NCBI GenBank assembly: GCA_032718475.1
Contig: JAUCBJ010001004.1
Span: forward strand, 4,067-68,066
DNA length: 64,000 nt
Direction: 5' to 3'
Source: Nemertoderma westbladi
Lineage: Eukaryota; Animalia; Xenacoelomorpha
In this document: positions 7,052 to 51,346 of the stretch, piece by piece
Position numbering within the stretch: position 1 is the stretch's first letter
How the letters are laid out: each line of letters opens with the position of its first letter
Translations under genes and position numbers: made by a program
Notes under the pieces: generated by a model
What the model saw: the letters and a program-made list of their open reading frames with translations, nothing else
Told to the model about the DNA's origin: nothing
Database searches by the model: none

Positions 7052-7052
7052 A

Positions 7053-7613: not shown

Positions 7614-7615
7614 TA

Positions 7616-8875: not shown

Positions 8876-8877
8876 GT

Positions 8878-9330: not shown

Positions 9331-9361
9331 TTAATCATTTAGCTTTTGTTTATCAGATAAA

Positions 9362-11795: not shown

Positions 11796-11800
11796 AATAT

Positions 11801-13060: not shown

Positions 13061-13138
13061 CCGCTCCCAGAAAATGGGATTTGAGTCTATAAAATATACA
13101 AAATCACAGTTTCTAATATACGTAAATACTCTAAACAG

Positions 13139-20332: not shown

Positions 20333-20409
20333 TTAAAGGATATAGCTTCTTTATTGCAGTAAGCAATAAAGTTGAAAGTACCGGTCAACCGGTAAACCTG
20401 AACGGTACA

Positions 20410-21240: not shown

Positions 21241-22587
21241 GTAGTTTGTACGCGTAGCGTAATATTTATTATTCAGAGTTTATGCGATTATCCGCAACAT
21301 TCATTCCCCAAGTTTGTTCCTACAGTAATTGTGTTTGTTATACATACCGCTATAGTTAAATTAACCCCGGTACTACACGGGCTGCTTGGCGTAGGTAAAG
21401 ACTGGTGATTCTGTGCATCGGTCACTCCAGCAGATGCCGTGGTTCTTTTAGCTGTTCAAGTATATTTAACTACTGATTATCTGTTGTACAAGTACTCGTA
21501 CCTAATTTAGGGTTTAGTGTACAGTGCTTTCCGAAAGTAATTAGTGAAGACATTATATTTGTGTTGTAAAGTGGTTGATAGGCACGTTCGATTAGCTCTA
21601 TTAACTTCTAGGTAGGAACACTCCGTGATACATAACGTAGAACCTATAGCGATACGGCTATAGGTCGTCAGGCGGTGGTATTTTCCTATCTGGACAACGC
21701 AGTGTATTTACTACTACTTATTATTTCAAATACCGTAGTATCCTGTCCGTTGTAATAACCAGAATTCTAACCCTTTGTTAGGCTGGTTAGTAGACTTCTT
21801 GTAAAATTACCCTAAAAATTCGTATTTTGTGTTTTTTGTAAATTTTTGTGTTTATTTAGAGATTGTAATCTCAACCCGAATTGTACGTAATTTGTAGTAT
21901 TAAGTAACTTAGGTAAATTAGTATTATTTGTTTTAGTGTCCTATAAGTAACACTTCACTGAAAGCGCACCGCTTTGTGTAGTGATTACTCCCCAGAAATA
22001 ATAACATTTATTTCAAACATTGACTAAACCCATTCAAACGGGTATATATATATTATAAATCAAATCTAACAATTTATAAATAGTAGGCCTACCATATACC
22101 AATTAGGTCTCAATATCAGTTGGACTACTGCTTAAATAACGGTAATAAAGTAAGTTAAAGTAACCAAGTAACCCTAAAGTTCAGAAATTCAATTATTCTA
22201 AAATAATTGATATACCGGTATTTACGATAGGCCTATTATAATATTTATATTTGTGCTGAAAGCATACCGGTATTCTGTAATTAATTCAGTTAATAATTAT
22301 ACTTATATATACACTACAAACTGTCAGCTGTACCGGTATTCCCGATAGGCCTATTATATATTTATATATATTTGTGCTAAAATTATACCGGTATTCGGTG
22401 ATAAACCTAGTCTGTAATAATAGTTATATATACTATAAGCATACCGGTATTCTAATATATTATATATATATCACGCTACACTGAGTAGCAGTACCGGTAA
22501 TTAATTATTAGGCTAGCAGTTAATACTGAGTTACTAGACTTGCTCAGACTGTAATACAGCAGTAGACATTCAACTGTATACATAGTC

Positions 22588-30500: not shown

Positions 30501-30785
30501 CTTATTGTGGACCCCGATCTCCCACGTAAGCGATGGCAAACGGGACGTATCATCGAGACTTATATCTCGAGCGATGGTTTGGTGCGATCAGTAGAGCTCG
30601 TCGTCATGCGGCGGAACTTTAAGAAACCAGGGATAGTCTTTGAGACTCAACAGCTCAATCGCCCAGTGGGACGTTTATGTTTACTGGAAAGAGACAGAGA
30701 GCTCTCCGGAAACTATGGAAGGCAAGAAACTCTTCCCACGACCACTTCCCTAATCCAACCGACATCTAGGGACTCCCCAACTTAA
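24429..30785 (+). CDS. BEL/Pao Gag-Pol polyprotein (Gag, three Zn knuckles, aspartic protease, RT, RNase H, integrase)
   Basis: FNGDEMKWLPF/EKLRYL; CALCDGTHHLNRC, CYNCLRQGHQRRTC, CAKCGAKHHILLH; ALLDSGS; VRVVFDGS, LLPGPNL, YMDD; FGDAS; GVDLFGP, SDKGTNF, WERLIRSVK. Confidence 0.96.
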   Translation: MPRRTAQETVQVLDPERNIPNLSPVVPRLPATTLADPVSAVDWVDERRRGMDILLGEMKENRIRSSQQVRELEGTVQHLKGTVRESKLELQEVQQSIALERDKLVNTQRGIPPPSVTMCQPVRSEVSHAQGVEPTRIYTASEVETPIVNPIKGNYRPVDNDIPYRTDHNPRNLYTDNSILNNTMAQESFTRQMARTEARQAVKVGEIVKFNGDEMKWLPFNEYYKDNIQNSVLSNGEKLRYLIECLEGSPKLMALKFIGHPDGLRQVWDTLNIRYGNRNNIAGYLYAKLVAPRKFISSGIIEFSDEIQEICRQLDWLGKSHEYQNTMVIRAVASTLPKGGVGTRWDKKVLYMMEQQRRDPTMADLMSFLDGEVKLQLLKLSREKTPENKVSEKPVSRRKVTPVCYTDDGESQTSQGEDSGKDTDRSYYVNKMPKDQVSKFKSRTNDRREQVRKTPPTSPKRIQVRKPEEKASVHNVTQNKVSNIKPKCALCDGTHHLNRCDEFLKKSLTERREVMWDKRLCYNCLRQGHQRRTCFSDIRCAKCGAKHHILLHAEFDRNSPNQVSDSELHVQFSDVNDTDQSEMEGFYTDEFSDENESCYMINTAVYRALTYEKDPDNDFTLTTSERQPSWKEPSSNVGIREFPVVQVRVHGPKRSYVVNALLDSGSTGTFIDKELAEDIFAGQPKFQTKLNMSGIMQVWKSTITADYYVGALSTPQDELGEHSIRSVKMVAIKNFATTQADLYNWDEDESIQHLNIPRFQTDYPGVQILIGQNAHEALETLEKRPAQPQPLQTYAVRTRVGWYFTGPSRRTLRERLPPESVCQVSEWEDDTSEGDNSTEGIPYSSDNDDVHQLFDEENTIDLLKENEAWQNQVNLCQLLYPSEREAYNDELNDVIERCNAKTRDEHAVRFFTQEAVEPNSYDKALSVEEERAKQIQETTTRFLKDQGRYEVGLPFRKREPKFINNRPLAEKRIAQLHRRLTANSSAKAMYQTQLEKFISKGYAERVPEETPVTERTYYLTHHYVPKPGKPNEVRVVFDGSALYMGQSLNSELLPGPNLLQSLLGILLRLRQYSIAFASDIEGMFLQVKVLDRDRDSLRFLWWPEGDLNQKPVEYWMTIQAFGIISSPSNACSVVRTTAEDNREAFSKEVIDNIKRDIYMDDNLKSLPSVEEAIEVAKGTVECLKRGGFRLTKFTSNSREFLESIPAEDRGAKDLDLIKDDLPETKTLGLKWDTERDILFFQLKQRDNPVRTKRICLSILSTYFDPLGFISPVILIARSLVQQMWLENHSWDDPLKGELLKQWMKWEDSLPAIEDFIISRSYFGHVLPTYSYQLHVFGDASDMGIGIVAYLRVETPDGIKVALVTSKALINNKLKVPRAELKAALYATAIGRNVTEQIDYTLEKTVYWTDALLVLEYITNEVCQFSVFVTNRVAIILSRTTMDQWRHCPGTINPADIASRGATPKELVNTPEWLGGPDFLYREEEEWPPHLTTAEIRQAKGAEKVKPKTRASKSKLFKPAVDLSVLFTSGEDALDQKPTATTKEVLEIRDKDWKSRIPDIAQGLSPLLQRAIRHYSSWNRLCKAVTYLKRCFHHRYSGTKPNSDDAPSTSARVHVVKDLPQYKVSDRFLKEKISYQEHDETNKQMLRLLQCYEDSDKYFLLLRNPQMRLRDRFSSTMIDGLIRVGGRLTNAPLSFDTKFPILIRNLDIQIKIIVDVHSKLYHAGRERVLSEIRTRYYFYKPRRALNQVLRNCIPCRKAFSRPLTQREAELPRETVSFYEPPFTNTGVDLFGPIEVYRARTIVKRWCVIFVCMTCRAIHLDMVNDLSTNSFVLSLRRQIARFGTSNTMRSDKGTNFIGANNEIQAYVKDWNKRQVDDQLRITASSWTFNAADAPWWGGSWERLIRSVKTAFHFIVPCRAYLTDELLRTLMEEIAAYLNERPLMPVSSNPDSLEALTPAHFLLKKPVAMLPRSEITDGDEYCRRTWQLMQLLSRRFADHFEKHYLPTLQLRTKWFAQQENVSAGDMVLIVDPDLPRKRWQTGRIIETYISSDGLVRSVELVVMRRNFKKPGIVFETQQLNRPVGRLCLLERDRELSGNYGRQETLPTTTSLIQPTSRDSPT

Positions 30786-32434
30786 TATCGTTCGGAGTGG
30801 GCGTGTGACTCTATTATTTTATATTATTTTATTATTTTTTACATTTATGTATGTATTACTATGTAATTTTATTATAATCGTTTTATTTAATTTAGTAGAA
30901 TATTATTTAGCGATTATTTTGTAGAATAGTGCAATATATTCGTGTTTATTACGTACGTAATTACTTATATTATATTTAGTGAGACGGCGAAGAAATAATT
31001 ATTTTTCTCTTTCCTTACTGTCCGTATTATATTATAAATACGTAACTACAGTAAGATGAAATGTCCGTACTTATTAAAGTACAATAAAGCCACTACTATA
31101 TTTAAGTATTATTGGTAGGCAGAGTATTAGGAATGCAAAGTTCAGATCCTCGTGTCTCGGCTAAACCAAGCTCTGGGTAGACCTTGGAAACGACTTGCCT
31201 CTTCACACTGACATTGCTTCGTGCGATATTGCTCTCATACCGTATATTAAATAATACATATAGTAGCGTGATGTCCCTTTAACAGTAGCGTATAACGCAA
31301 AATAAATCTGTTAAACCCTTTGACCATCTGTAATTCTAGTCGATTAAGATATCGTGGCACCCACCGATATACTTGAAAGACAAATTATAGAATCAGTGGT
31401 TAACGTCCCCAGACAAGTTCTGGAATAAATCGGTGCCCATCTCAAATATTAATTAGTTAATATTTACAAATCAAATAAGTCAAAATCTGTAAAATTCAGA
31501 TCCTTCAACAATTCTAGTCAATTAAGATATCGTAGCATTTACCGATATTCTTAAAGAGACAATTTTCTTAGAATTAAGGATCTTGTGTCCCTAGACATGT
31601 TCTAGAATCAAAATATGCCCATTTAATTATCAAATAATAAAATTTCAGGGAATAAATTTAAATTCATGTCTTTTAATGAATTTAATAAATTGCCATTTTA
31701 CGCGATTTATAACATTCCCAAAATTCCATTAATTAATAGATCAAGGGAGCGGAGATTTATATTATTATGCATATGAGTGTGCGAAAGTCTCCCAAACATA
31801 GTTAATAGCTGATAAAATTCGTAAAGTCATGTATAAACAGGACATTGACTATTAAAGAATTCCTATTAAATAACATCCCAGATCTGTATGCATTGGAATT
31901 ACCCTAATTCTACCGCTAGCTTTATATAATGTCACCATAGCAACAACCACGCTAGAATTAGAATTGAGTTAAAAGAACAATAGAAAGCTTGTCCCATTGA
32001 ATAGCATAGGGAATAAATAGCGCACTGCTAGTATCCAAGGATACATAATAATACAGTGACATTCTGGAAGGCATTGACTAACGGACAAATGGCCCGAATG
32101 TGCGTAGTTGTGACCAGTTGTGTGGTATTTGTGAGTTTATAGGTGAATGTTACTGCTAAAGTGTGTTTACAGTAGCTAGTCGCAATCGTAAAGTAACCTA
32201 ACTCTCCAAGGAATACCTGAAGTACATCTAAGCCTTTGGGACGGACAGTGGAGTGACTTGTGCCGGTTATCGTTGTCGTTGTACGGCTACGTCGTTGGCG
32301 AAAGTACAGCTACAGCGGTACATCGGCGCTGAGAATCTCCTACTGTCCGGGGGCAAGGGAGAAATAGGCAGCGACGCCCGCTCGCCTAACGATATATAAA
32401 CTCATTATAATATTGGTGAACTTGTATAGCAGAT

Positions 32435-32800
32435 ATGACTGAATTAATAGAAGATGATCTTGGTATCAGGGAGAGATATACTCTACCTTTACAAGCGTTT
32501 GTCGATAGCTTGATACGCGGCGACGCTGATCCAACTACTACGGAGGACGATGGTCGTTATATCGAACCGCCAATGTCCCAGGAGCAACTTACGCGTGAAT
32601 TGGATTATAGAAAGTTCACTGCTCGCTACACGCATCGTAATGGTACGTATATGGACTTCTTGACCACTGGTCATCCTATTGATTTACACGATACGGACGA
32701 TGTAGACACCGAAAGGGAAATGGTTTTATTTAAATATCATGCCCAGCGGAGTCGAAACGATAAATCGAGAATAGAACACGAGAACCCTATTCGAAATTAA
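32435..32800 (+). CDS. Element B accessory ORF, N-terminal part (unknown function)
   Basis: Conserved with A 14590..14192, with many synonymous changes. Same frame as 32894..34669 but separated from it by three stops. Confidence 0.7.
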   Translation: MTELIEDDLGIRERYTLPLQAFVDSLIRGDADPTTTEDDGRYIEPPMSQEQLTRELDYRKFTARYTHRNGTYMDFLTTGHPIDLHDTDDVDTEREMVLFKYHAQRSRNDKSRIEHENPIRN

Positions 32801-32893
32801 CTCGAAGGATAGAACGTGGAAGAAGAATGCGAAATAGTTTTTCCTCTGCTCTACCATCGCTGTCGGAGAACATATTAGGCATACAATGGGAAT

Positions 32894-34669
32894 ATGGAGA
32901 ACATTCCATACCCTTTCGTTGATACTCAGCTGATTGCTCCTTGGGCCGAAGGCCGAGGTTTCTTTCGCACTATGTATGCCAATACACCCAGCGGCATTAC
33001 TAAAGTACAACGGACATCCATTGGACATCTTGCCTTTCAAGAATATGGTTGGAATTTCAAAGTTGGAAATCCTATAAATTACCAGCAAGTATATGGAGAT
33101 CATTACTCTCGTTTATATTTTGATGGACCATTAACTGCGCCTGGTGCCGTATATAGCTTTATGAGTGTTCCCCTTCGCCCTTCCTTAGCTATATACACGA
33201 TCTTTGAAAATGCAGCACTTGCCGGTTGGCTAGCCGATGTGTGCAGTCGTACCATACGCGCTCATCCGTTAATACTTGGAACTAAACTCGCCAAGTTAGA
33301 CGAACACAATAAGTTCATACGTTTCGAATGTTTCCGGCGCTTTCTGACTCCGTTCCGTAACGTCGATAGTCAGTTCAAGGATCGCGCGCTGACCAAGCTC
33401 AGTCTTAGAGACTCAGCTGCGGAGAAACTGAGTAGCGCTGGATTTGCCGTCTTTCAAGACGTTTGTATACAGAACCTACATTCATCCGTTATACAAAGAG
33501 CCCGAATATCTACAGGTTATTCTGTCGTGGAAATACAGACAGTGGGTCCACTTACGGAAACCGACGCACCCACTTCGTCTATGCAGCTGGAGGATGAACC
33601 AGTATGCTTGGAATCAGAAGCGATTCAACCTACGGCTTCTCGGAGCAGTGACAATGATTATGTCATAGAGTGGTATCAAGGTCCACAGCGTCTCACAGCG
33701 TACGATTATCGACACGCCAACTACGTTTCCCGAAAACGTTGTCGATTATGCGCATCGAGAGACCACTTCACTCCTCTAGACTCGAGCGTACCTTGTTCCT
33801 ATTTCCTCGAACAACCGATGATGGAAATATATTGTGCTTATTGCCGGCTTAATAACTCTCATATATTTGCCGTCTGCCCACAATTTATGACTCAATGTCA
33901 CTACTGCCAACTTAAAGGACACGAAAGTTACAATTGTCCCTTTAATCGCGATTTAGAGAGCGTAGACGAGATGATCACCCTGCGATACATCCGAGCTTGG
34001 GAAGCGAACGCAGATTTACATTGCGAATCCAGACATCGCTATTACCCTGGACGAGCTTACGAGGGAGTTTACGCGTTCCATCCTTATCTATTCGCGTCGA
34101 TTGAACAGAAAACACGCGTACCAAGTTACGAGTTAATAAAGCGTGTTGGTGAGTGTATTTCCACCAAGTTTGTCAGAAAATACCTTAGAAATGTCAACCC
34201 TAATGATATAACCACATATCACCTGATCAATTTTATCCGTCAGGACCCTGAGTATGGCGACATTTTCGTGAACTCGCATCCTGAACTCCAGGAAGTATCT
34301 CGGCGCCCATATGAATATCGAACCCGAGAACGCGAGCTGGAGAGAACCATTAAACCGAGAAAGTTCCTCACCACTCACGGTCCACCCACCGCTAGTGTCC
34401 AGACGACCCGTCAAGGACCCGTAGGAGCTGCTGTCCTGAGACGCGCTCTAAAGGCCGTTAGATCTCACTCCACTGAGGTTGATATTAATCAACCAGGTAC
34501 TTCGACTGGCGGGTATACCGATCGTAACCCTGCACCTTCTGATGCAATTATATTGCACCCTTCGCCTAGGAGCTACAGCCCTCCTCGTAAAGTGGCTCGC
34601 CCCAAAGAGAAAAGGACTCTTGCTAGCCTTAAGAAACTGCGTAAACGCCGTCCGCGCAAGAAAGACTAA
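32894..34669 (+). CDS. Element B accessory protein with Cys/His clusters, a CCHC knuckle and a basic NLS-like tail (not env-like)
   Basis: CRLCASRDH, CAYCRLNNSHIFAVC, CHYCQLKGHESYNC; tail LKKLRKRRPRKKD. No obvious signal peptide or TM segment. Conserved in A. Confidence 0.85.
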   Translation: MENIPYPFVDTQLIAPWAEGRGFFRTMYANTPSGITKVQRTSIGHLAFQEYGWNFKVGNPINYQQVYGDHYSRLYFDGPLTAPGAVYSFMSVPLRPSLAIYTIFENAALAGWLADVCSRTIRAHPLILGTKLAKLDEHNKFIRFECFRRFLTPFRNVDSQFKDRALTKLSLRDSAAEKLSSAGFAVFQDVCIQNLHSSVIQRARISTGYSVVEIQTVGPLTETDAPTSSMQLEDEPVCLESEAIQPTASRSSDNDYVIEWYQGPQRLTAYDYRHANYVSRKRCRLCASRDHFTPLDSSVPCSYFLEQPMMEIYCAYCRLNNSHIFAVCPQFMTQCHYCQLKGHESYNCPFNRDLESVDEMITLRYIRAWEANADLHCESRHRYYPGRAYEGVYAFHPYLFASIEQKTRVPSYELIKRVGECISTKFVRKYLRNVNPNDITTYHLINFIRQDPEYGDIFVNSHPELQEVSRRPYEYRTRERELERTIKPRKFLTTHGPPTASVQTTRQGPVGAAVLRRALKAVRSHSTEVDINQPGTSTGGYTDRNPAPSDAIILHPSPRSYSPPRKVARPKEKRTLASLKKLRKRRPRKKD

Positions 34670-34747
34670 CTGTTTAGAGTATTTTTATATTTTAGAAACT
34701 GTGATTTTGTATATTTTATAGACTTAAATCCCATTTTCTGGGAGCGG

Positions 34748-35953
34748 TGTAAAAGCTTTTGTGGGATAACTGATTCGTTTGCCTTGTTGGCCAGTTCCCC
34801 CCCAGTCGCTAGAATACTCTCAAAAGGGATCTATAGCTAAAAATAGTGCAAGTTACCAGCTTATTGGCTGATTTGTTGTACGCAGGCATCTGGGCTCTGT
34901 TTAATCGGCCAACAAGCCTAGGGAGGTTGCGTCATAGCCTTGTTTTTGTATCTCCCAATAGAATTTGAGTTAGCCTTGATTTTGACCTATCACAGAGCTA
35001 CTGAACTGAAATTTTCCTATCTCACTGCTCTTTCTCTGTGTTGAACGGGAGCTTCGTGGAATAAGGGTAGTTGGTATCCTCGTATAGAGCAGTAGTCACG
35101 AGTTTTTCAAAGCCACGAAAGAACGGCTTTGTAGTGTTTTATGCTTTCTGCTTTTTAGCTCAACACTAGTAGGTTTAATTATAAGGACATATATCCTTTA
35201 ACTGGCGACCGCATTTGACACACCGTACCACACGGCTTTTAATAACTGCTGAAACTGCTAAAATTTACCTGCTCAATCAATACTGTGTACTGCTATTTGT
35301 TGTCGGTTATTCATTATATTGGTTGATGAATTATTATATTGGAATAACGAGAAATAACCCCGACACCCAATATTCTTGATATACCGAAGGTAAGAGAGAA
35401 AGGTTACCAATAACGATTGTGACTTATGTTAAAGTGGTTTGAAGTGAATCTAATGTTATTTGATAGACCCTACATGAGTCAGTCTGTGTTCCTTTTATAT
35501 GTGACTAAAATCAGTGAAGATTGGCAGATTAGTGTGCAGTATTGTGCAGCATTGTGTATGAGTGAGTCTGTTAAAGAAGCATTTCCTAAAGAATGCGCCA
35601 TATATGTGAATTATAATTAAGCCATATCGTTGTGAGTAGTTTAAGTCATAACTCTGTTTATATAGATAAAGCGCCACGTCCTAAAGGAACTGTTAATATT
35701 CCCCGAAGGTGAATAATATTGTCAGAGATTATATAATACTGTCAGTCGAATAATACATTAGGCTTACATAGCAATAAAATTAAACCGTCGAACCCAATCT
35801 CCCGGGAATATCCAGCGGGTGAATGATCGCGCACAGATTGGTTTCGACTAGTGTAGTGAATCAAATACTTGTCATAGGCTAAAAAGCGATTTAATATCTA
35901 GAAGACATCTTAATTTGGCGGGTTAAACTGCCAAAGGTCTGAAAGCGCGAACA
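34748..35953 (+). repeat. 3' LTR of element B
   Basis: Copy of 19127-20332, preceded by PPT-like ctgggagcgg. Confidence 0.95.
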
Positions 35954-35958
35954 ATATG

Positions 35959-38900
35959 ATTCCAAAAGCCTGGATGGTCATCCAGTACTCTACCGGTTTC
36001 TGATTGAGGTCTCCTTCCGGCCACCACAGAAATCTCAGGCTGTCTCTATCTCTATCCAGCGCCTTGACTTGTAAGAACATTCCTTCTATATCGGAGGCGA
36101 ACGCGATGGAATATTGTCTTAATCTTAAAAGTATTCCCAACAAAGATTGGAGTAAGTTGGGTCCTGGTAACAACTCGGAATTGAGGGATTGGCCCATATA
36201 TAGGGCGGAGCCATCGAATACGACTCGTACTTCGTGGGGTTTACCGGGTTTGGGAACGTAATGATGTGTTAAGTAATACGTTCTCTCAGTCACTGGTGTT
36301 CCTTCCGGTACTCGCTCCGCGTATCCCTTTGTTATAAATTTCTTCAGCTGAGTTTGGTACATTTCTTTAGCTGAAGCATTAGCCGTAAGTCGTCGATGTA
36401 ATTGAGCGATTCTTTTCTCTGCCAAGGGTCTGTTATTTATAAATCTAGGTTCTCGTTTTCGAAATGGTAGGCCAATTTCATATCTACCTTGGTCCTTTAA
36501 AAAACGTGTAGTTGTTTCCTGGATTTGCTTGGCTCTTTCTTCTTCTATCGATAGGGCCTTATCATATGAATTGGGCTCTACCAGTTCTTGAGTAAAGAAT
36601 CGTACGGCTAGTTCGTCCCGAGTTCTAGCGTTGTAGCGCTCTATCTCATCGTTTAGTTCGTCATTGTAAGCGATGGGTTCCGATGGGCGAATCAGTTGAC
36701 ATAGGTTCACCTGATTTTTCCAAGTTTGGTTTTCTGTAAGTAGGTCGATTGTGTTCTCTTCATCGAAGAGTTGGTAGATGTCGTCATTATCTGAAGAGTA
36801 TGGTGTTTCCTCAGTTAGTTCGTCCACCTCACTGCTCTCCTCGCTCCAATCGTTTACTTGGTATATTCGTTCTTGTGGCATTCTCTCTTCGAGAGTCCTG
36901 CGGGAAGGGCCAGTAAAGTACCAACCTACTCTAGTTCTTACCGCATAGGTTTGCAGTGGCTGTGGTTGAGCAGGCCGTTTCTCCAATGTTTCGAGCGCCT
37001 CATGCGCGTTTTGGCCGATGAGTATTTGCACTCCAGGATAATCTGTCTGGAATCGAGGTATCTTAAGATGTTGGATACTCTCATCTTCGTCCCAATTATA
37101 AAGGTCTGCCTGAGTAGTGGCGAAGTTCTTTATAGCCACCATTTTTACCGACCTTATACCTTGTGCTCCTAATTTATCCTGGGGGGTGGACAACACACCT
37201 ACATAGTAATCTGCCGTTAGGGTAGATTTCCAAACCTGCATAATTCCTGACATATTCAATTTAGTCCGGAATTTGGGTTGTCCAGCAAAGATATCTTCGG
37301 CTAGTTCTTGATCGATGAATGTTCCTGTGTTGCCGGAGTCAAGGAGGGCGTTCACTATGTAACTTTTGTTAGGACCGTGAACTCTTACCTGCACTACAGG
37401 AAATTCTCTGATTCCTACGTTGGAAGTTGGAGCTTTCCAAGATGGTTGTTTGGCAAAAGTAGTTGGGGGAAACTCATTGTTGGTGTCCTTTTCATAAGTA
37501 AGTGCTCGATACACTGAGGTATTGATTAGATAACAGGATTCGTTGGCGTCGGAGAATTCGTCAGTATAGAATCCTTCCATCTCAGACTCCTGATCAGTGT
37601 CATTTACATCACTGAATTGGACATGTAGTTCGGGCTCACTTACCTGACTCTGTTTGTCTCGTTCGAACTCACTGTGTAACAAGATGTGATGTTTCGCGCC
37701 ACACTTTGCACACTTTACGTCGGAGTAACAGGTTCGCCGTTGGTGTCCTGGTCTGAGGCAATTATAACATAACCGCTTGTCCCACACGACTGCACGTCTG
37801 TCTACAAGGGATTTCTTTAGAAATTCAGCACACGCACTCAAACGGTGGGTCCCGTCGCACAACGCACAGTTAGGTTTTATGTTACTCACTTTACCTTGGG
37901 TAACTTGATGCACTCTCGTTTTTTCTTCGGGTTTTCTTCGGTGCATTCTGTTAGGAGACTGAGGGGGGGTCTTGGCAACCTGTTCTCTCCTATTGTTGTT
38001 TCGAGCCTTGTATTTACTTACGTCCTTTGAGGTTTTGTCAACATAGTAAGATCGATCGGTGTCTTTCCCGCTGTCCTCTTCTTGAGAAGCTTGGCTTTCG
38101 CCGTCGTCAGTGTAACACACCGGTGTTACTCTTCTCCTAGAAGCGGGTTTCTCACTTACCTTATTTTCCGATGTTTTCTCTCTGGACTGCTTGATGAGTT
38201 GTAGTTTTACCTCACCATCTAAGAAGGACATGAGATCAGCCATGGTAGGGCTTCGTCGTTGTTATTCATTCATGTACAACACTTTCTTGTCCCAGCGTAT
38301 ACATACTCCACCCTTGGGTAAAGTAGAGACTACGGCTCCAATAACCATGGAACTCTGATATTCATGAGACTTACCTAACCAGTCCAATTGTCTACAGATC
38401 TCATGAATCTCATCGGAAAACTCTATAATCCCGCTACTAAGGAAGTTTCGGGGGGCTACTAATTTTGCATACAAATACTTAGCTATGTTATCCTTGTTAC
38501 CATACCTGATGTTTAATGTATCCCAAACTTGTCTTAATCCTTCTGGATGTCCAATAAACTTTAACGCCATTAACTTGGGAGGTCCTTCCAAGCACTTGAT
38601 GAGGAACCTAAGTTTCTCTCCATTAGATAGCACAGAGTTCTGTATGCTGTCTTTGTAATATTCGTTGAAAGGTAACCATTTCATCTCATCTCCATTGAAT
38701 TTGACGATCTCTCCCACTTTGACCGCTTGGCGGGCTTCTGTTCTAGCCATCTGACGCGTAAAGCTTTCTTGGGCCATCGTGTTATTTAATATCGAATTAT
38801 CGGTATATAAATTTCTCGGATCATTGTCAGGTCTATAGGGGATATCATTAATAACAGGTCTATAATCACCCTTAATAGGGTTTGCTATAGGAGTTTCTAC

Positions 38901-41045
38901 TTCACTAGCAGTATAGATGCGTGTAGGCTCCACACCTTGCGCATGTAATACTTCAGACCTAACAGGTTGACACAATGTTACAGGGGGTATTGGTATGCCT
39001 TTTTGTATATTGACTAATTTGTCGCGTTCCAGTGCGATACTTTGCTGCACTTCTTGCAATTCTGCCCTACCTTCCCTTACTGTTCCCTTAAGCTGGTGGA
39101 CAGTCTCCTGCATCTGTCCGAGCAGGAGATTCATCCCCCGCCGTCCCTCCTCTACCCACTCGACCGCCGAAGCGGGAGTCGCCAACATTGTAGCGGGCTG
39201 ACGCGGGACGACGGGAGACAAATCTTTGATTTCTCTCTCAGCTTCCAGGACAGGGATATTCTCATGGACTGTTCTACCGGGTACAGGCAGTGTAGTACTG
39301 TGTAAAGGGAATTTGGAGTTAAGCTCTGGAAGTACAGGGGTCTCTAGCACAGAAGTGACTTTGGGAACGACAGGCCTAATTATTTCAGGCTCATCAACTA
39401 TTGTAGGGAGTCTTTTGACCTGAATAATTTGTTCTGTGGGTTCTGTACTACCTAAGTCTGTGCTAGTTAGTTGTCTTCTAACCGCCGGGGGCAAATCAGG
39501 CAATTTGTGACGGTGAGATGTTTTTCTACGCCTGCTTGGACGAGATCTATTTCCTCCGCCTTCAGGATCAGTGGTCTCGCCTTCCTCCGATGATGTGTAT
39601 CCTTGGCGCTTGGGAGTAGATCGACTCCTCATCTGCATTTGACTAGCAGTTAACTGTTTATTTATGCAGTCTTGCGTCTCTTGAAGATTTTCCAACTCCA
39701 GTTGTGTGGTCTCTTCAGACGCTCTCTGTTCTGCGTCTGCCAATGCCATTGCTGCTGCTGCTTTGGCTGCTTCCACTGTCGCTGCAGCTTTTGCTTCTGC
39801 CTCTTCCACTGCCGCTGCTGCCTTTGCCTCTTCCACTGACGCTGCCGCTTTCGCCGCTGCTACTGCCTTTTTGTCCTTTATCCGTTTTTTCTTTACTCGT
39901 TCTTCTTGGACTCTAGTGAGGCGGAGTTTTTCATCAAATTCAGCTTGGTTAGCAGCTAACATTTCAGCATCGATTGAGTCTAACACACGCTGGGTTCCTT
40001 CACTATTAGGGGTAAGTCCAGATAACCGTCTCCTCAACTCCTTGTCTCCTAGGAATCGCTGATAGTCGGACAGATAAATGTCTATGGCGTCTCTCGTTCG
40101 TGGTCTCTCTGCAGTCTCTTCGCCTTCCACTTGAGAAAGGGTGGCATCGGTTGGTTCTTCATAGGTTAGTCTCTCAGACAGCTGGGATTTCCACTGGTCC
40201 GTTTCTTGTACTTTGAGACCTACCCGCTGGAACCAAGTTTTGACAGCAACTTGCAGCGACGTGTCCTGTCTTCTTTTGGAAGTTTCCTCAAAGGCTGATA
40301 GGATTAATCTAATGCGTAGGGTTCTTTCGCGTACTTGATATAGCAGCTCTTCCTGCTCTTGAGGTCCTTGGGGTTGTCAAAACAGTTGTTCTTCTAATCG
40401 CTCCAAGGAGCCGAAGAATCCCTGCACATATCCTGCTGCCGACCTCTTCCAAACAGCTGGATCCATTGTATCTTTAGTCACTCCCATCCTGTGTATATCT
40501 TCCCAAGTAGCTTCGGACAAATCTAACGGGAGTCCGGGTCCGGGAAAGTTCCATTGTGACTCGACAATCGACATCAATTCTTCCCTGGCGTATCCCGCAT
40601 AATTATCTTGGGTCGCTCGCTTACTTCTCGTCCAATCGGCTTGATGTTCCTCCACCGCAATCAATATAGTAGTTAGCACTGCGGCAGGAAGGGTGAGAAG
40701 GGGGTCCGAGTAGGTTGTAGCCGCCATCTGCAATCCGCGTTCGGGGGTCAGCTCGACAGTATCCGAACTACTGGAGCTATCGGATCGCTGGGAACAAGTT
40801 TCTTGACTAGGCTGTTGCTGCTGTGGGACAGCTGCTTCCTGGTTCCGTTTGACTTGGGCCCGAGTGCCGATGATAGACCTACGGTGTTGGATTAGCTTAG
40901 GGTCTGATACTACTACTGGAGGGATGACCTTTCTTTCAGTAGGAGGTGAGCTGAACTCCTTTCTTAATCGCTCCACACTCCTATCTGTGTCACAGATGGT
41001 TGTATCGATTAGACTGTCTGACAGGTTTTGCTGAGTGTCAGACAT
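35959..41045 (-). pseudogene. Element A gag-pol, 5' part (Gag, Zn knuckles, protease, RT N-terminus)
   Basis: Homologous to B throughout; in-frame stops at 40377-40379 and 38262-38264; cut by the B insertion. Confidence 0.92.
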
Positions 41046-43278
41046 GTTTAGCTATACGGTTGAATGCCTACTGCTATAGTTACAGTTAAAGCAAGTCTAG
41101 TAATTCAGTATGACCGTTGGCCTAGTACCGGTAATTTAGTACAGTATATTAGAATACCGGTATACACTTATAGTATATATAAGTATTGTAAACTAGGTTT
41201 ATCACAGAGTACCGGTATATAAATTTAGCACAAATATATAAATATATAATAGGCCTATCGTGAATACCGGTATACCACTTACACTTATAGTATATATAAG
41301 TATAATTATGAACTAGAATTAATTACAGAATACCGGTATGATTTCAGCTCAAATTTATAGGAATAAATATAATAAGCCTATGGTAAATACCGGTATGTCA
41401 ATTATTTTAGAATAATTGAATTTCTGAATATTTTAGGGTTACCCGGTTACTTTAACTTACTTTATTACCGTTATTTAAGCAGTAGACCAACTGATATTGA
41501 GACCTAGTTGTTGTATGGCAGGCCTACTATTTATAAATCGTTTGAGTTGATTTATAATATATATATACCCGTTTAAAATGGGTTTTGTCAATATTTGAAA
41601 TAAATGTTATTATTTCTGAGGGAGTCACTACACAGAAGCTGTGCGCTCTCAGTGAAGTGACACTTATTTGACGCTAAAACAGATAATTCTAATTTACCTA
41701 AGTTACTTAATACTACAAATTACTTACGATACGGGTGAGATTAAATCTCTAATTAAACACAACAAAAATATTACGTACGAAATTTTAGGGTAATTTTTAC
41801 AGGAAGTCTACAAACCAGCCTAACAAAGGGTTAGAATTCTGGTTATTACAACGGACAGGGTACTACGGTATTTAAAAATAATAAGTAGTAGTAAATATAT
41901 TGCGCTGTCCAGATAGGAAAATACCACCGCCTGACGACCTATAGCCGTATCGCTATAGGTACTACGTTATGTATCACGGAGTGTTCCTACCTGGAAGTTA
42001 ATTACCGTGGACTACCAGATCCAACGTGCCTATTAACCACTTTACAACACAAATATACTGCCTACACACTAATTACTTCGGAAAGCACTGTACACTAAAC
42101 CCTAAATTAGGTACAAGTACTGGTACAACAAATAATCAGTAGTTAAATATACTTGAACAGTTAAAAGAACCATGGCATCTGCTGGAGTGACCGAAGCACA
42201 AAGTCACCAGTCTTTTCCTACGCCAAGCAGTCCGTGTAGTACCGGGGTTAATTTAACTATAACGGTATGTGTAACAAGCACAATTACTGTAGGAATAAAC
42301 TTGGGGACATGAATGTTGCGAATAATCGCATAAACTCTGAATAATAAATATTACGCTACCCGTACAGAATACTCAAACAAATACAAACCAAACGCTGGCA
42401 GACTACCACCAAGCCTAAATAAACTACAGTATGTGCAGATTCCAAAATGGTTAGTTAGTATGCGTTCTAACACGGTAGTACGACTTATTCTTTAAGAGGG
42501 GATTGACCTTACAGCTATGGCTGCCCCAACTTACTAACTGGCACTTTATCAGACAAACTCTACACACGCAGCAATCTCTTCAGACCTAATAATAGCCAGA
42601 CAACAATCCAGCCTACAAAATATCTGAGTAATAACTATTACGGTACCTGAACAGACCACACAAACAAACACAGGCCAAAACGTTGGCAGAATACTGTCAA
42701 GCCTAAATAAACTACAGTATGTGCAGATTCCAAAATGGTTAGTTAGTATGCGTTCTAACACGGTAGTACGACTTATTCTTTAAGAGGGGATTGACCTTAC
42801 AGCTATGGCTGCCCCAACTTACTAACTGGCACTCTATCGGACAAACTCTACACACGCCGTAATCTCTCCAAACCCAACAACAATCTAACAACAGTCCGGC
42901 CTACAATTATCTGAACAATCTGAGCAGACTTACACGTCTTCAGCTCAATATTAACTTACATGTAAATAAAACCGACAGAAATAAGTAAAATCTCAATAAA
43001 AAACCAGGGCTGCAGTCCCTGATTAAATACTAAGACCTACCGGTATGCAATAATCAAAATCGAATAATACTAATGTACTTATACTGGAAGTACCGGTTAG
43101 GACAGTTGGGCCTACGGACCTACAGAAGTACCGGTTCTGGCAGTTGGACCTACGGACCTACAGCAGTACCGGTTCTGGCAGTTGGGCCTACTGACCTACA
43201 GAAGTACCGGTTTAGGTTTACCGGTCGACCGGTACTTTCAACTTTATTGCTTACTGCAATAAAGTCAATAACTGTTAT

Positions 43279-44538
43279 TGTACGCGCTTTTGAAGACCTT
43301 TAGCAGTTTAACCTGCCAAAATTTATATGTCTTTTGGTTTATAAATAGACTTTAGAAGTTGACAAATATTTAATACCAATAAACACAACATTAGCAGAAG
43401 CCAGCCTAGTGCGTGTCCATTCACCCGCTGGATATACCCGGGAGACTGGATTCTGAGGGCTTAGATTATTATTGCAGTGTAAGCTTACTGTATTATTCGA
43501 TTGATCGTTAATAAATAATTTCTGACTAATATTATTCACTTTCGGGAAATATTAACAGTTCCTTTAGGACGTGGCGCTCTATCTAGGTAAACAGAGATAT
43601 GACTTATACTAATCACAACGGTAAGTCGGTGAGGCTTATGATTCACGTATGAGGCGCATTCTTTAGGAAATGCTTAGTTATCAGTCACAATCAGGCACAC
43701 TACCGGTAACACACAATACTGCTCAATAATTTGCCGACCGTCAATGAATTTTATCATATATAAAGAGAACAGCAACGGACTCATGTAGTGCTTATCAAAT
43801 AGCATTAAATTCACTACAAACCACAATAATATAAGTCGCAATCGCTATATATAACCCGTCTCTCTAACCTGTAGTGTATCAAGAAAATTGGGAAATTTGG
43901 GTTCTTTATAAATGTTCTCCAAATAATATTCAACCAAAACACAACAGTAAAAAGCATTAAGATGGTAGGTTAAGATATGATATGACAATGTATGTGCCGA
44001 TTGAGTCGAGTTGATTGAGTTGAGTTGATAACAGTTATACGCTCTATAATTTAAGCCTACTAATGTTTCTTCTAAAGTATGAAAACGAATTGACTCTAGA
44101 GCCGGTGTTCCTGGCCTAGATAGAAACAACACAACAGTATCAAGAAAAAACAGTAAGACTGAACACTCCTAGTATGATCGGCCGAATATCTCCACATCGA
44201 CAGAAAAAATCGCTCTGATTGGCTTAAGCTAAACAAAGAACCATGTGTCCAATGGCCGTTTCCATGTCAGCAACCAGCTGTTAGATGTCGTAATCTGAAT
44301 CATCAAGGCTAAGCTGTGTAAAGGTATTTGGTGCATTGCGGGTTTTTTGCCTTACCATGTCCGCCAAAGCACGTATATAGAAGAATGACTTTTATGTCCG
44401 TTAAAACACCTATAACGGTACCTTGCGGGCGAGGGGAATATATATATAGTTAGAGAGCCTTTTAGAGTATTCCAGCGCCTGGGGGGAAACTGGATTGCGA
44501 AGCAAAAGGGCCAGTTATATCCCACAGAAGCTTTTACA
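43279..44538 (-). repeat. 5' LTR of element A
   Basis: Copy of 11801-13060. Confidence 0.95.
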
Positions 44539-44808
44539 AATATAAGTACATAAATTAACAGATTTTAAAATCAAATTAATACTAGTTTTATCAAATATAT
44601 GCTTTTTTACTTTTTGGAAATTATACTTACTGCCTAATAATGTAATACGACCATTTTTAAATATTAATAATGTGGCACCAAATATCTTATATATAAACTG
44701 ATTTGGTTTGAGTATGTGTTTACCAGGTAATTGATTTTTTAATTCTTTAAAATTAATCGCTGACACTTGCTGGCAACTTACATTCTTATTAACTATCTGA
44801 TAGTTCAT
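44539..44808 (-). pseudogene. TBP-like gene of the Polinton, 5' half
   Basis: YQIVNKNVSC...INFKEL...ATLLIFKNGRITLLGSK resembles TBP (TALIFSSGKMVCTGAK). Its start overlaps the pPolB stop by 20 bp. Confidence 0.8.
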
Positions 44809-47800
44809 TGTTTGGTTCCCGATAAATAGGTATATTGTTTTTCTTTATCGGTTTTTCAACCTTTGTTTGATAGTGACCCCAGGGAAGTGAATGATTTTTA
44901 TTAACCCAATAAAGTTTATCGTCAAATGCGCTGAGAGCAAACTTATCTCGTGCTACAGTGTACACTTTGTGTAATTGGCTCTGAAATTGATGCATTTCCT
45001 TGGAAATTTCCTCGTTATGTTTATATGCTCTTAAATAATCTTCGTGGCAAATATTTTTATCCACGACAGCTCTTGTTATTCCTTTCGCCCGTCGTATATT
45101 GGATTCATTCCATTCTAAAATTGAATATAATTTTGGTCTTAAAAATACCGCTTGTTTAATTTCACGTGAGGCTAGTTCATCTTTACAGTAATAGAGCCTG
45201 GATTTATTTTTATCACTGTAGAGAGGGTGATCCTTGGGGTAATTGGATGTATCTAGAATATTATTTTTAATTAAGGCTTTTAAAAAATTATTCTGCGATG
45301 TATTATAGTAACAACCTATTAAAGAGTCCGTATCTGATGCTACAATTTCAATACGACAGTTTAATTCTTTCTCAATAGGTAGCAATTTATTGTAATACAG
45401 CTCATACATATCCAATTTAGCCAAGTCCAACACAGTACTACCTACATAGACTGGCTTATCTAGTGTTGCAGCTTGCAGAGTCTTTCACTAATAAATGTCC
45501 CGATAAGGAATCGTTATAAATCATGAAATTTTCGTGATTTATACGTTTCACCAATAAATCACATTTCTCTTTACTATTAGCGATACGAAAGTTGCAACGG
45601 TCCCGTATCTTTTCAATCGTTTTTCCAAATAACGAATTATTTAGAAGCTTTGCAACAGCTGTTTCAATGTAACTTTTTGCAATTCGCCTTTGATTAATAT
45701 TAAAATCTATATAGGGTTTAAATACAAAGTCTTGATGGAAAGAATACAATTTATGGAGCTTAGTAACAATTAAACCTTGTTTTATATAACATTTTAACAG
45801 TTTCAAATTTACATGATAGAATTCCTTATCGAATTGTGTCAACATAAGTTTTGGAGCACACATCTTATAATTGCTATTAGTACCTCTTTGTTTACAAACA
45901 TGATTATATTGTTCCCTCATATATGGTGAAAGCATTGTCTCATTTATACTTAAATGTTCTGGGGCTAAGGGTAGTTCTAATGTACGATCATGAATATCTT
46001 TGGGATATTTCAAATCGCAAATTAAGAAAAACCCAATATCCCCTTCAGTATCAAGATTTGTTAAATACTTTATTATTTCTTCTGGGGCGGCATTCTCTAA
46101 ATATGTAACGTTGACTTGTTCAAAACCTGAAACAGGTAGCTTTTTACTTAAATTACCGGAATACAAGGAATTAAAATCTATATTGAAAATATGACACTCT
46201 TCCTTGCTTGGATCATAATTATCAGTATCTGGTATATTTGATTCTATGTAATGCTTTCGACAGAATGAAACCCCTCCTCTAATAGATGCTTCAAAATCTC
46301 TATATGTTTGGTAATCTTTTATTAATGCTAACTTACATTTATTGTATTTCAGGGCGCAATCATAAGTGAAAGCTGCGATACTACAATAATAAACTACTTC
46401 TAATTCGTAGTTTTGTCTACATACTCTCCTAAAGTTCTCAAATATATCAGCGAGGAGACAAACATCGAGTTTTAAGTATGCTAAAAGATAATCCTTGAGA
46501 TTCACACAGTCAAACTGACTCCATGATGTGTTGGCAAAACTATATTCCTCGGGAGTACAGGTATTTTGTGTTAATTTACTATAAAATTTGTCTATTGATG
46601 GTAATTTCGAATCATTGAATTTATTTAAATCTGTCAGATACTCATAGGGGAATATACCTTTTCGTTTAATTGTTGCATTATTTAAATTTGGATAAAAATA
46701 TTTCATTTGCTGTTCAGTAATTGGTAGAACTGATGTTATATCCTCGCTGTCTATATCCTTTGTTGAACAATCAACTAAAGTACTTAGGGAAAAGGATAAA
46801 AATTGATATGTGTCTAAGACACGTAGCTCGATCTTAGTTTTTTCATCTTTCACTGGTATATGCATGCTTAGTGAAATATACCTTTCAGAATTTTTAGGGA
46901 TCACCTTTATATCCCAATCGGAATATTTATTGTTGGTAAAACCAACTTGTAAAAGAAAATGCAAATCGTAGAGATTGCAGTTGTGTGCAGCGAGTATATA
47001 CATGTGTCGTTTCAACGATAAAGAGCGGTTACACGCGTTACAAGCGGCTGCTATATAGTTACCAGTAATATGTGAGTGATGTTTGTTTTTCTCAGATTTA
47101 TCCTTAAATAAAACATAATAATAATAAAAGCAAGTTTTAGCTTTCCAAAAACTTAACTTATCTACATCATTAAGTATTATTTTCTCTCTTGTGTGGGTTT
47201 CTGCCCACTTATATAATTGGGTGATGTCATTATATACAGAGTCTAAAAAGTCTTGAATACAGTTGTTGTCGATTGTTTTTGTAAAGGTCTTCAAATAAAA
47301 TTTTGGTGGATTGATTAATTCACTACTAGGAACAATTAAATAACTTACAGCGCATGGAATATGATTCTGAATAAATTTACTGTTGGTGGCTGGCTCCAAA
47401 ATAGATTCTATGTCAAAATATATTACAAACAATGCTGGTAATGTTCTGTCTAAATTTCTAAAGCTAATGTGAGTTCTTTTTTCAGACGGTAGCTTCTCAA
47501 CTTGACTTTTTCCTCGATAACAAGCAAGACGGTGACGTTCTAGAACTTGCTTGGTGTAGAAAGGCGCCAAACACCGTTCACAAAATTTCCTACATCTAAT
47601 ACGCTTACCTGTTGTATTCATCAAACGATTCAAGTTAGTTATGCAAACATAATGTGATTGTTTACTCGTATTCTTATTTTTTACAAGTAATATATTCAAT
47701 AACTCTTTATCTGGAGTGATTTTACTAAATGGTGCCTGTCTTAATATAGATACTCGATTGTTGTCGTAGAGTAATAAATTAATTATATATGCTGAATTCT

Positions 47801-48815
47801 GTTTTTCAAAAAGTTTAATTGCAAGCGACCATTCTGTTGGATAATCTTTGTTCCCGTTGTCAAAAATAAAATAATTCATGTAATCTGAGTACTGCGAAGT
47901 ACGATATTTGTGATCTTTCACTTTGCTACTAAATTTTGTGGCTATAATAGCCCATTTGAAACAGTCATTCTCAGCCGTTTGTATATTTATTGTACAATTT
48001 TTACCTGATAGAGTCTTAGGTAACTCCATATAACCGTGTCCTTTATATAGTAACGACCTACACTTGGATTCAGCTACTTTAATTTCCACTCTTAATAAAG
48101 ATTTAACGCACCACCCTGAGCCACGAGTGTTAAATATGGCTATTTTTTGCATTAATTTTTCTAGTACATACTCAAACCATGTGTCAAAACTTTCATGTGA
48201 ATCTACGGTATTAACTGAACCACCTGAAGAACTAAAATAGAAAGTTTCTTCTTGGTCACCCTCTGAAAAATGTGATCGATACATGAGTATATTCACACCT
48301 AGCCAGGGTCTAAGTACATTCATTTCGCTAAGTTTTCCTAATAATAAGTTTTTAATATGAGGAAGAATATGAACTATTGATGAATGAATATCAGGAAAAG
48401 CTTCATCATTTGGAAGATTGTAAACATAGATTTCTAAATGGTTATCGTGTGCGGATCGTTCGATGCTAAAAAATGATGGACCTTGACCAGATTTCAGTCT
48501 TTTTCTAGATGCGACAGTATTGTTTTGGTTCCGTTGTGGTGGTCTAACATGATAATAACGTTGGTGACAGTCGTGACGTAAATAATTATCATATAAATAC
48601 TCTTTATTACAAGTAGGGCAAGTTTTTTCATACACGTAAAACTTCATTTCTTTACATCCCGCAGTTGATTCATGTCGTTTGCATATTTCTTCTGTAGGTG
48701 TAAAAACATGACACTTAAAACAAGAATAACCTTCAAAATGTGACCTTAGGTGGCGTAAATAATTACGTTTAGAAATTTGAAGAGGACAAAATGCACATTT
48801 CAATTGTTTATCCAT
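44789..48815 (-). pseudogene. Protein-primed family B DNA polymerase (group-2 Polinton type, N-terminal Zn fingers, EndoVII-like insert), one frameshift at ~45465
   Basis: Exo FDIES, HNCNLYDLHF, YLKLDVCLLADIFENFR; KGIFPYEY; IRGG; pol DFNSLYS, KLLNNSLFGK, SDTDS; HHSHITG...CNACN insert. TLDKPVYVGSTVLDLAK continues in the shifted frame. Confidence 0.93.
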
Positions 48816-49357: not shown

Positions 49358-50401
49358 TCAATCTGATACTGTTTTTATATGTTCCTTATTGTAATCTGCT
49401 ACCTCTTCACTTGCTTTTGTAACTTTTATTTTCTTTGTAGGTATAGAATCATTGTTGGGAATGGAAGATGTTTGAGATGTAGATCTGCGCTTTCTATCAC
49501 TCGATGTCTCTTCGATGTATGTCTTTGGATTAAATGTAGATGAAACTACTTCTGGAAATGACTTATTAACCTTAAACTTCCAAGTTGGTTGATATAGAAT
49601 CGCGAAACCGTCTGCTATATCAGTTGATGAAACCTTTAACATCATATCATAGAGAAACTCTATATGTGGTATGTCTTTATCGTAATGTAACTGTAAATAT
49701 TTGCTTTCCTTGTCTGTAATAATTACTTTTTTTTCTTGTACATTTATTTTTACTTTAATTCGGTCAGATAAAGCTTTATCGCCCGTATCTAGCTCTGAAA
49801 AGACACCTTCGTTACTAATTTCATAATTCCATTCATACCACAATGAATTTACTTCCGATGCTGTTAAGTTAAACCCATTATAATACCTAAGACCAATAGC
49901 ATCAGAATATCTAGCTGAAATCTCCCATAGTCCCATATAAGTCGTTCCTTTATATTTGCTTACAAAACCAACAAAAGATGGGTTGGTTAAATTAACAACA
50001 GAACACTGATTTATTATTTCGAGTGGTGGTGATAACAATTCTAATATTTCTGTCTTACTCTGAAGCAATAAATTAATGAGTGATTTGTTTAGAATTTGAC
50101 ATTTGCCTTGCTTCTGAATATATACGTTTTCAGTAATAACACAGGTGGAAATATTTAACTTTCCTCTTGTAAATTCTATATTAGGATAAATATTACCTCT
50201 TGAAACTGGTGATTCCTTTTGTCGGTTGATTAATATTTCTAAGACGTCTAGAAGGTAGAGTGTATCCTGGTAAGAAAAGCACGTTGTTACATTGCTATCG
50301 CTTGAGAGTAATATAAAGTACTTGCCATAAACAATACTACAGGTATATTTATTACATGTAAATTTCCAAGTATTGCTTGAAGTTTTTTTAAATAAATCCA
50401 T
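49358..50401 (-). CDS. Polinton 347-aa protein with a PC4/Sub1-like domain (candidate SSB or coactivator)
   Basis: FVSKYKGTTYMGLWEI...NGFNLTASEVNSLW; NLS-like RKRR and PTKKIK. Lies directly upstream of pPolB. Confidence 0.55.
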   Translation of the reverse strand: MDLFKKTSSNTWKFTCNKYTCSIVYGKYFILLSSDSNVTTCFSYQDTLYLLDVLEILINRQKESPVSRGNIYPNIEFTRGKLNISTCVITENVYIQKQGKCQILNKSLINLLLQSKTEILELLSPPLEIINQCSVVNLTNPSFVGFVSKYKGTTYMGLWEISARYSDAIGLRYYNGFNLTASEVNSLWYEWNYEISNEGVFSELDTGDKALSDRIKVKINVQEKKVIITDKESKYLQLHYDKDIPHIEFLYDMMLKVSSTDIADGFAILYQPTWKFKVNKSFPEVVSSTFNPKTYIEETSSDRKRRSTSQTSSIPNNDSIPTKKIKVTKASEEVADYNKEHIKTVSD

Positions 50402-51299
50402 AATTAGAATGAAAACTATTTTGAAAAATAAAAACTAAATAAATGATTATTAGAATGTAAAACTTCTGTTTATATGGTTGCTTTAATACAACAGAGTGAC
50501 TTACAGTGAGGAATATAGTAGCTTCGTGTAACAGATGCAACGTGTACAGCTAAATTTATTACATTAGCGTGAGTTAGAGAGTGAAATAGCAGTAACATGT
50601 AACAGATGCAACGTGATCAATGCTAGCCCTGTCATTCTAACTTATATGTTAACTTAGTTGACCGACCAGTCACATCGATAAAAGAAATCGATTATTATTA
50701 ATAGTCGAATTAATGTATTCTATGCTATAGTAATTATGTTAAGGAACTAGAAGCTATTTATAAACATCTGCTACCTGTGATGAAGATGAAGAATTCAATG
50801 ACTATGGTATAACTCAGATATTTATCGCCTTTTTCTCTCGAGGTTGGATGGAAGAGTGATTGGTGAGTTGTGAGGAGTTATAACAGTCCCGAGTTCGAAC
50901 CCTGTTGAATATTTTGTTATCTAAAAAATTGCAAAATTAAATTTAGTTACTGGTGAAAAATAGTAGAAGTTACCTGTAGACACCTCTAGCGTCTGTAAAA
51001 TAAAGGTTGGTGAATATGAAAATACTGGTTGTTGAAAAATAGCGATTTGAAAAATAGTGGAAGTTACCTGATGCTAAGTGTAGACACCCGAACACCTGTA
51101 AAATAAAGGTTGGTGATTGGACAGAGTACTAGCGTTGGGTGACTAATAACGCCTCTAGCGGAAGATGCGGGAACTTGAGAAGTTGCCATGGTTACGGATG
51201 AAATGCTGACATCTGATTGGTTGAAATAATAACGACCACTGCTAATGGTTGAAATCGTGGCTTCTGATTGGATGGAGTACTAAAATTGGATGGTAATGA

Positions 51300-51346
51300 T
51301 GGGCTACGGGTGATCTTGGCCGGGGGGGCTAGTAATATATACTACT
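51300..51346 (-). repeat. Probable Polinton right terminus (TIR end)
   Basis: Minus strand AGTAGTATATATTACTAGCCCCCCCGG; sharp switch to BEL pol coding sequence at 51347. The partner TIR is not in the window. Confidence 0.65.

Follow-up and report, generated by a model that had tools for sequence, protein, structure and literature searches.

Polintons are thought to replicate by protein-primed strand displacement, and no single-strand-binding protein (SSB) assigned to them was found in the literature searched. The question raised by the present locus is whether the outermost gene of a Polinton from Nemertoderma westbladi encodes such a protein. The gene, here called A347, is the first one inside the right end of the element, and an initial annotation had described it as PC4-like and as part of a co-oriented block with a polymerase and a TBP-like gene. 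For the central domain of its product, the prediction is a PC4-like fold of the Pur-alpha/Whirly type with two repeats in a single chain, and we tentatively favor a role in replication. The features are collected in Table 1; "the window" is the whole stretch of DNA analyzed, 64,000 nucleotides long.

Table 1. Features of the Polinton and of A347 in the window (nucleotide positions refer to the window, amino acid positions to the protein)
Feature	Position	Strand	Remarks
A347, 347-aa ORF	49358..50401	minus	ATG to stop without interruption
A347, N-terminal part	aa 1-127	minus	fold unassigned
A347, predicted two-repeat PC4-like domain (Pur-alpha/Whirly type)	aa ~128-260	minus	AlphaFold2 model and structure searches
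A347, repeat I	aa 128-196 = 49814..50020	minus	contains the motif of the initial annotation
A347, repeat II	aa 201-260 = 49622..49801	minus	best-modeled part, pLDDT 72-84
A347, low-complexity S/T/K tail with NLS-like basic clusters	aa 296-347	minus	clusters read by eye
Polinton right terminal region	50402..51346	minus	begins AGTAGT; five CCAAT and two TATAAA words upstream of A347
Family B DNA polymerase, protein-primed type, main frame	45456..48815	minus	Exo I-III, motifs A and B; stops at frameshift
Polymerase, C-terminal frame	44789..45484	minus	motif C DTDS, KxY; end overlaps TBP-like start by 20 bases
TBP-like gene, first repeat	44539..44808	minus	PF00352 E 4.8e-4, 20.4 bits (cut-off 22.9)
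Nested BEL/Pao LTR retrotransposons	11801..44538		inside TBP-like gene, 32.7 kb
TBP-like gene, second repeat and stop	11511..11800	minus	PF00352 E 2.5e-4, 21.2 bits (cut-off 22.9)
Structural block	5443..9958	plus	protease by PF00770; capsid labels presumed, by eye
B570, 570-aa ORF	2472..4184	minus	homologue of A347; aa ~400-520 (2625-2987) match the two-repeat domain

The element is a Polinton/Maverick (adintovirus) by its gene content. It has a protein-primed polymerase B, though the gene is frameshifted; this was identified from Exo I-III and motifs A, B and C, all in order, and it went unscored by Pfam, PHROGs, PDB and NCBIfam. It also has an adenovirus-type protease (PF00770, E 8e-6, above the cut-off) and capsid genes, the latter read by eye and with labels that we presume. 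The structural block comprises two probable minor capsid frames, the first of them cut at its 5' end, a 186-aa basic protein, an interrupted probable major capsid gene, the protease and a 198-aa ORF. No integrase or packaging ATPase was recognized among the window ORFs scanned with Pfam. The right end is marked by ACTACT finishing at 51346, or AGTAGT on the minus strand, which we take to be the Polinton end motif. No inverted repeat partnering this end was found in the window, and a candidate left end at 461 was rejected, as it agrees with the right end in its first bases only.

Several observations concern the edges of these parts. A truncated BEL/Pao frame begins immediately outside the right end, and a MITE-like element with inverted ends of ~30 bp (5136-5431, by eye) lies directly before the 5'-cut first structural frame. 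The 198-aa ORF that follows the protease (9362-9958, plus strand) resembles DEDD exonucleases in a D-x-Q/E pattern at its N-terminus and found no match in Pfam, PHROGs or NCBIfam. Complex, GC-richer repeats occupy 10400-11400, between the converging structural and TBP-like genes. Farther out, a hint of a compact host genome comes from two adjacent, intron-free, probable host genes only 27 bases apart (60386-62551, plus strand): one encodes a ThiS/MoaD-like protein (E 1.2e-10), the other a protein that contains a Rubisco LSMT substrate-binding domain (E 1.6e-8).

The gene order from the right end, namely A347, polymerase B and the TBP-like gene, all on the minus strand, is as the initial annotation had described it. 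The co-oriented block itself stands in part. Polymerase B is indeed the next gene after A347, but it is split over two frames. The first half of the TBP-like gene adjoins the polymerase, but the second half lies beyond the 32.7-kb insertion, and the block converges on the plus-strand structural genes only across that insertion. PF00352 is the best match of both TBP-like halves, each just below the cut-off, and the first half also matches the archaeal TBP 1mp9 (E 0.014) and the NCBIfam TBP model (E 0.044). Judged from these sequence matches, the gene has two tandem TBP repeats, although it is not intact in the present copy. No loci related to the TBP-like half were found in the viral contigs searched.

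The outer LTRs of the insertion, ~1260 bp long, are 99.4% identical and flanked by a 5-bp target duplication, AATAT. Within the insertion, four or more BEL/Pao elements are nested, some in each orientation; the identity of the outer LTR pair marks it as recent, and a 2068-aa frame (24579-30785) is open in one of the BEL/Pao copies. The BEL/Pao elements suggest an animal host. With its polymerase, TBP-like and capsid genes broken, the present Polinton copy is dead, so any role of A347 would apply to the ancestor when it was active, or to copies that are intact. Five of the nine sequencing runs listed (4 studies) contain the stretch or part of it, no RNA run being listed among these, and the run contigs that overlie it fall into identity classes of 7333, 2810, 176 and 46 records, as expected of a multi-copy family.

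A347 itself is real and intact: in 500 shuffles of the region, the longest stop-free run was 155 codons, versus the 347 of A347. Among the 12 listed of 49 indels in the overlying run contigs, one falls within A347 and is 3 bases long. A 542-bp spacer containing one AATAAA and four TATAAA words separates the gene from polymerase B; these words fit separate transcripts for the two genes, albeit weakly in DNA that is AT-rich.

Two sets of observations bear on transcription in this arm. Ahead of the A347 start codon is a pyrimidine-rich tract that looks, by eye, like a splice acceptor (50402-50440), and similar tracts precede the starts of the polymerase (48816-48850) and of B570 (4185-4230), all on the minus strand; spliced or trans-spliced leaders are possible. 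On the plus strand, the contigs of one run, whose type is recorded as "DNA?", skip 46557-47486, 47633-49441 and 48577-49441 at GT..AG ends, with two of the three skips sharing one acceptor, preceded by a pyrimidine tract, at 49440. This suggests a spliced antisense RNA across the polymerase and A347, read as non-coding since the pieces flanking the skips have stops in all frames.

The PC4 assignment had been made by eye, from a segment that corresponds to aa 147-184 of A347, inside repeat I. By sequence, this resemblance is not significant. The whole of A347 did not match PF02229 (the family cut-off being 25 bits), its segments gave no match up to E 10, and the metagenomic homologue P0001, described below, did not match the family either. 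Against a profile built from 31 bacterial and phage PC4 proteins (T5.115 and 30 bacterial loci, mostly of one subfamily), A347 scored -1.9 bits, a value reached by 36 of 300 shuffles. There is local agreement with T5.115 (PDB 4bg7), where aa 147-158 of A347 and aa 32-43 of the phage protein share 6 of 12 residues (E 0.011). In profile-profile comparison, repeat I gave a borderline probability of 22% against three T5-like sequences picked after the fact (1 of 100 shuffles) and 4% against all 31 PC4 proteins (2 of 100 shuffles). The PUR repeat gave no sequence match to A347 in Pfam or PDB and an identity of 10-13% in structural alignments.

Using a correspondence between T5 and human PC4 residue numbers that we presume, the two positions of the PC4 stacking pair can be compared with the A347 family. 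The position of T5 Phe35 is aromatic in all three homologues (Y, F, F), and that of T5 Trp46 is occupied by I, I and P; a Trp two residues before it is invariant. In PC4, the base-stacking pair consists of F77 and W89 (PMC4350104). A347 and PC4 are not orthologues: the model places two repeats in a single chain, and A347 lacks both a PF02229 score and an N-terminal co-activation region.

Two homologues of A347 were found. One, B570, is encoded near the other side of the same window; its alignment score with A347 (82) was reached by none of 2000 shuffles. Its third-position GC, 0.45, differs from the 0.20-0.35 of the element's 11 other frames, and B570 therefore probably comes from another element family. 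A second Polinton family or a domesticated copy are candidate readings. B570 has a 290-aa N-terminal extension, a higher GC content and its own CCAAT-containing upstream region, and it points away from the structural block. A single-sequence structure model of B570 reached a pLDDT of only 29.

The other homologue came from a profile of A347 and B570, which gave two matches at E ≤0.001 among 1.84 billion proteins. P0001, a metagenomic protein of 311 aa (E 1.6e-6 in that search, 1e-11 pairwise), is encoded on a contig of 1497 bases without gene context; the second match, P0002, was set aside as spurious, being a PKD-repeat protein. A direct search with A347 gave no match in Pfam, PHROGs, NCBIfam or PDB. 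In a set of 5.8 billion, none of 2921 candidates for A347 and none of 5845 for B570 proved related, and the three-sequence profile retrieved P0001 alone among 1563 candidates. The viral contigs searched held no loci related to the core alignment or to the polymerase, and the metagenome contigs searched held none related to P0001 or the alignment. In the Atlas comparison, the nearest neighbors of P0001 were three unnamed eukaryotic clusters (0.82), and the best Pfam-bearing cluster, with 31% PF02229 members (score 0.80), is a lead only; aa 130-262 of A347 had no usable named match there.

Conservation among the three homologues centers on the segment singled out in the initial annotation, that is, on repeat I. 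The residues L138, F146, K149, Y155, G157, W159, G176 and S182 are invariant, and the strands of repeat I carry a cluster of the conserved aromatics. The S/T/K tail of A347 is not conserved in B570 or P0001. Repeats I and II have no likeness in sequence (86 of 100 shuffles score equally well). A further repeat or two in aa 1-127, suspected by eye, was rejected in the absence of profile support, as 46 of 100 shuffles match the core equally well.

An AlphaFold2 model was made for aa 74-264 from the three-sequence alignment. The mean pLDDT is 53.4 and the pTM 0.54, with values mostly of 60-84 over aa 144-253; 63 residues lie at 70-90, 43 at 50-70 and 85 of the 191 under 50, the last class including the first strand of repeat I. 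Repeat I is modeled as strands at aa 143-150, 153-165 and 168-180 and a helix at 181-196, followed by a linker and by repeat II with strands at 215-220, 225-230 and 235-239 and a helix at 243-258. DSSP assigns short strand or bridge residues ahead of each strand set as well. The type I PC4-like domain is defined as four strands, a helix, a linker, four strands and a helix in one chain of ~150 aa, and the predicted topology of A347 equals this definition, as given in the available text of PMC7549692.

The PC4/whirly-like fold that had been anticipated was thus obtained at the level of a moderate-confidence prediction, with Pur-alpha, MRP1/2 and Whirly as best matches. Foldseek placed repeats I-II of Pur-alpha at ranks 1-7 (E 0.012-0.078, probability 0.97-1.00), with MRP1/2 and Whirly lower; no match reached E 0.001 among the PDB chains or in the viral structure library. 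A search of 48,161 chains by a method other than Foldseek placed Pur-alpha (3k44) first, at Z 8.2 (rmsd 4.6, 117 residues aligned), followed by 2it9 (7.5), 2nvn (7.3), MRP (7.1), Why2 (6.5), PBF-2 (6.3) and an SsgA-like protein (6.1); since this tool often gives a best Z of 7-8 where there is no true kinship, the weight rests on the agreement among the top rows. Three of these seven rows presumably share the type I fold. The other four are named as type I PC4-like in the accessible part of PMC7549692. The first clearly unrelated row is a viral polymerase at Z 5.5. When the 995 Foldseek chains were re-aligned, human PURA reached Z 9.7, with 121 residues aligned at rmsd 3.3. Human PC4 reached 4.8-5.0, its 54 aligned residues lying in repeat II only, and T5 4bg7 reached 3.2. 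Phage proteins lead the ranking in the viral structure library (E from 0.0015); a weak neighbor at rank 26 is an uncharacterized 229-aa protein (E 0.052, probability 0.96) of Drosophila-associated adintovirus 2, a virus described in the consulted part of PMC8363768.

Given this predicted fold, the reading that we favor, at a probability of roughly 0.45, is that A347 acts as a single-strand-binding, duplex-melting helper in protein-primed strand-displacement replication. Such a role would fit both the modeled fold and the position of the gene beside the polymerase. Conserved aromatic and basic residues (F146, K149, Y150, Y155 and W159) would allow the curved sheets to bind single-stranded DNA; type I and type II PC4-like domains bind single strands on such sheets (PMC7549692 and PMC4764581, in the passages available). 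The basic tail may carry the protein to the nucleus, where A347 could coat the strand displaced by the polymerase and help to open the duplex without ATP, an in vitro activity that the same passages report for Pur-alpha, WHY2 and PC4. The SSBs of protein-primed viruses are structurally varied and stimulate processive replication, and for Bam35, phi29 and PRD1 the polymerase and terminal protein suffice for replication in vitro (bioRxiv 2021.03.25.437074, available portion), so that an SSB would be helpful rather than strictly required.

Several points count against this reading and lend themselves to other explanations. The model is shallow, being built on 3 sequences, the repeats differ in sequence, and the domain is not basic (14 K+R vs 19 D+E), although T5 PC4 is acidic too. 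The PC4 look could be a common strand-helix arrangement wrongly called, or the fold could serve protein binding, as in an antagonist of a host factor or a scaffold. COMM-like and SsgA-like folds share the arrangement, SsgA/B rows occur among the structure matches, COMM domains serve other roles (PMC13392464, in the part available), and the confidence of the model is moderate, with no significant sequence link to PC4 or PUR. We nevertheless consider this rather unlikely, for the same family comes first in two different structure searches, whose upper rows are filled with type I PC4-like proteins, the independent language-model lead for P0001 likewise points to PC4, and the conserved aromatics are grouped on the repeat I strands. 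A further point against the replication role is the rarity of the family, with 1 outside homologue in the databases searched; a core replication gene would not be expected to be so rare unless its evolution is very fast.

If the fold is right, it might instead belong to an RNA-binding protein or a sequence-specific regulator like Pur-alpha or MRP1/2. Its targets would be viral transcripts, or single-stranded, purine-rich elements within the terminal promoter region. Pur-alpha, among the closest structures, binds DNA and RNA alike, and MRP1/2 bind RNA; moreover, the gene has a terminal position, and B570 shows that large N-terminal extensions are tolerated in the family. We hold this to be unlikely, since no target or motif is known and a location beside the polymerase fits replication at least equally well. 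The suggestion that A347 partners the TBP-like protein, as a co-activator stabilizing the melted promoter for host RNA polymerase II, appears improbable. It draws on gene order, the two genes sharing a strand and an arm, and on the co-activator function of human PC4 and yeast Sub1 (PMC9600219, available text). The polymerase gene, however, sits between the two, and A347 is not orthologous to PC4. In PC4, a lysine-rich region bordered by serine/acidic regions precedes the DNA-binding domain, according to the same text; this region is missing from the N-terminus of A347, and the C-terminal S/T/K tail is not conserved. Before five plus-strand genes there was no shared promoter box and no variant promoter word stood out, just three AT-rich 6-mers being common to 3 of the 5.

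A broader proposal, which we regard as possible but doubtful, is that animal Polintons recruited the PC4/PUR fold as their SSB, in the form of a fast-evolving tandem-repeat family among the "hypothetical" terminal genes. If true, protein-primed replication would have one more type of SSB, structurally independent of the others, and there would be a viral single-chain PUR-like domain. In the literature searched, Polintons and PC4 occurred together only through a PC4 cluster label in a LINE table, no paper was found on a two-repeat (PUR-like) form in Polintons, and no titles linked Polintons to an SSB or the PUR fold; supplements, Repbase and subscription papers could hold an earlier label. The term "PC4" is absent from the available text of PMC8502044, bioRxiv 697771, PMC11161782, PMC8363768, PMC10748475 and two 2026 preprints. 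With its predicted Pur-alpha-like fold, this small, intact and expressible domain opens the gap of the Polinton SSB to testing. It also offers a structural route to the annotation of orphan genes in Polintons that escape sequence profiles.

The finding on A347 stands apart from the TBP story, as TBP-like genes of adintovirus/MELD elements are already in print in a figure legend (Starrett et al., PMC8502044); the portion of that text available mentions no PC4- or PUR-like gene. Unlike those genes, the present TBP-like gene is split by the LTR insertion. In its proposed role, A347 would resemble the SSBs of protein-primed viruses, such as adenovirus DBP, PRD1 P12/P19, phi29 p5 and Bam35 P2. These have folds of their own or divergent OB-like folds, unrelated to that of A347, and none is described as PC4-like in the available portion of bioRxiv 2021.03.25.437074.

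Human PC4, fungal Sub1 and T5.115 (PF02229; PDB 1pcf, 4bg7; type II) superpose on one A347 repeat. They are single-repeat homodimers, whereas A347 is modeled with two repeats per chain, and it lacks their PF02229 score, an aromatic at the T5 Trp46 position and the N-terminal co-activation region. Whirly proteins (WHY1/PBF-2, WHY2) and trypanosome MRP1/MRP2 have the type I fold in common with the A347 model (Z 6.1-7.1), but they are organellar tetramers with no sequence similarity to it; they bind single strands, and WHY2 melts duplexes (PMC7549692, available text). The closest likeness is to repeats I-II of Pur-alpha (PDB 8chv, 8cht, 5fgp, 3k44), which share the predicted two-repeat, single-chain topology at Z 8.2-9.7 over 113-126 residues. 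Pur-alpha uses a third repeat for dimerization and a KNR-F contact motif, as stated in the accessible part of PMC4764581. A347 differs from it in having only 12-13% identity, no Pfam match and no detected third repeat, and in combining a viral context with a long N-terminal part to which no fold is assigned.
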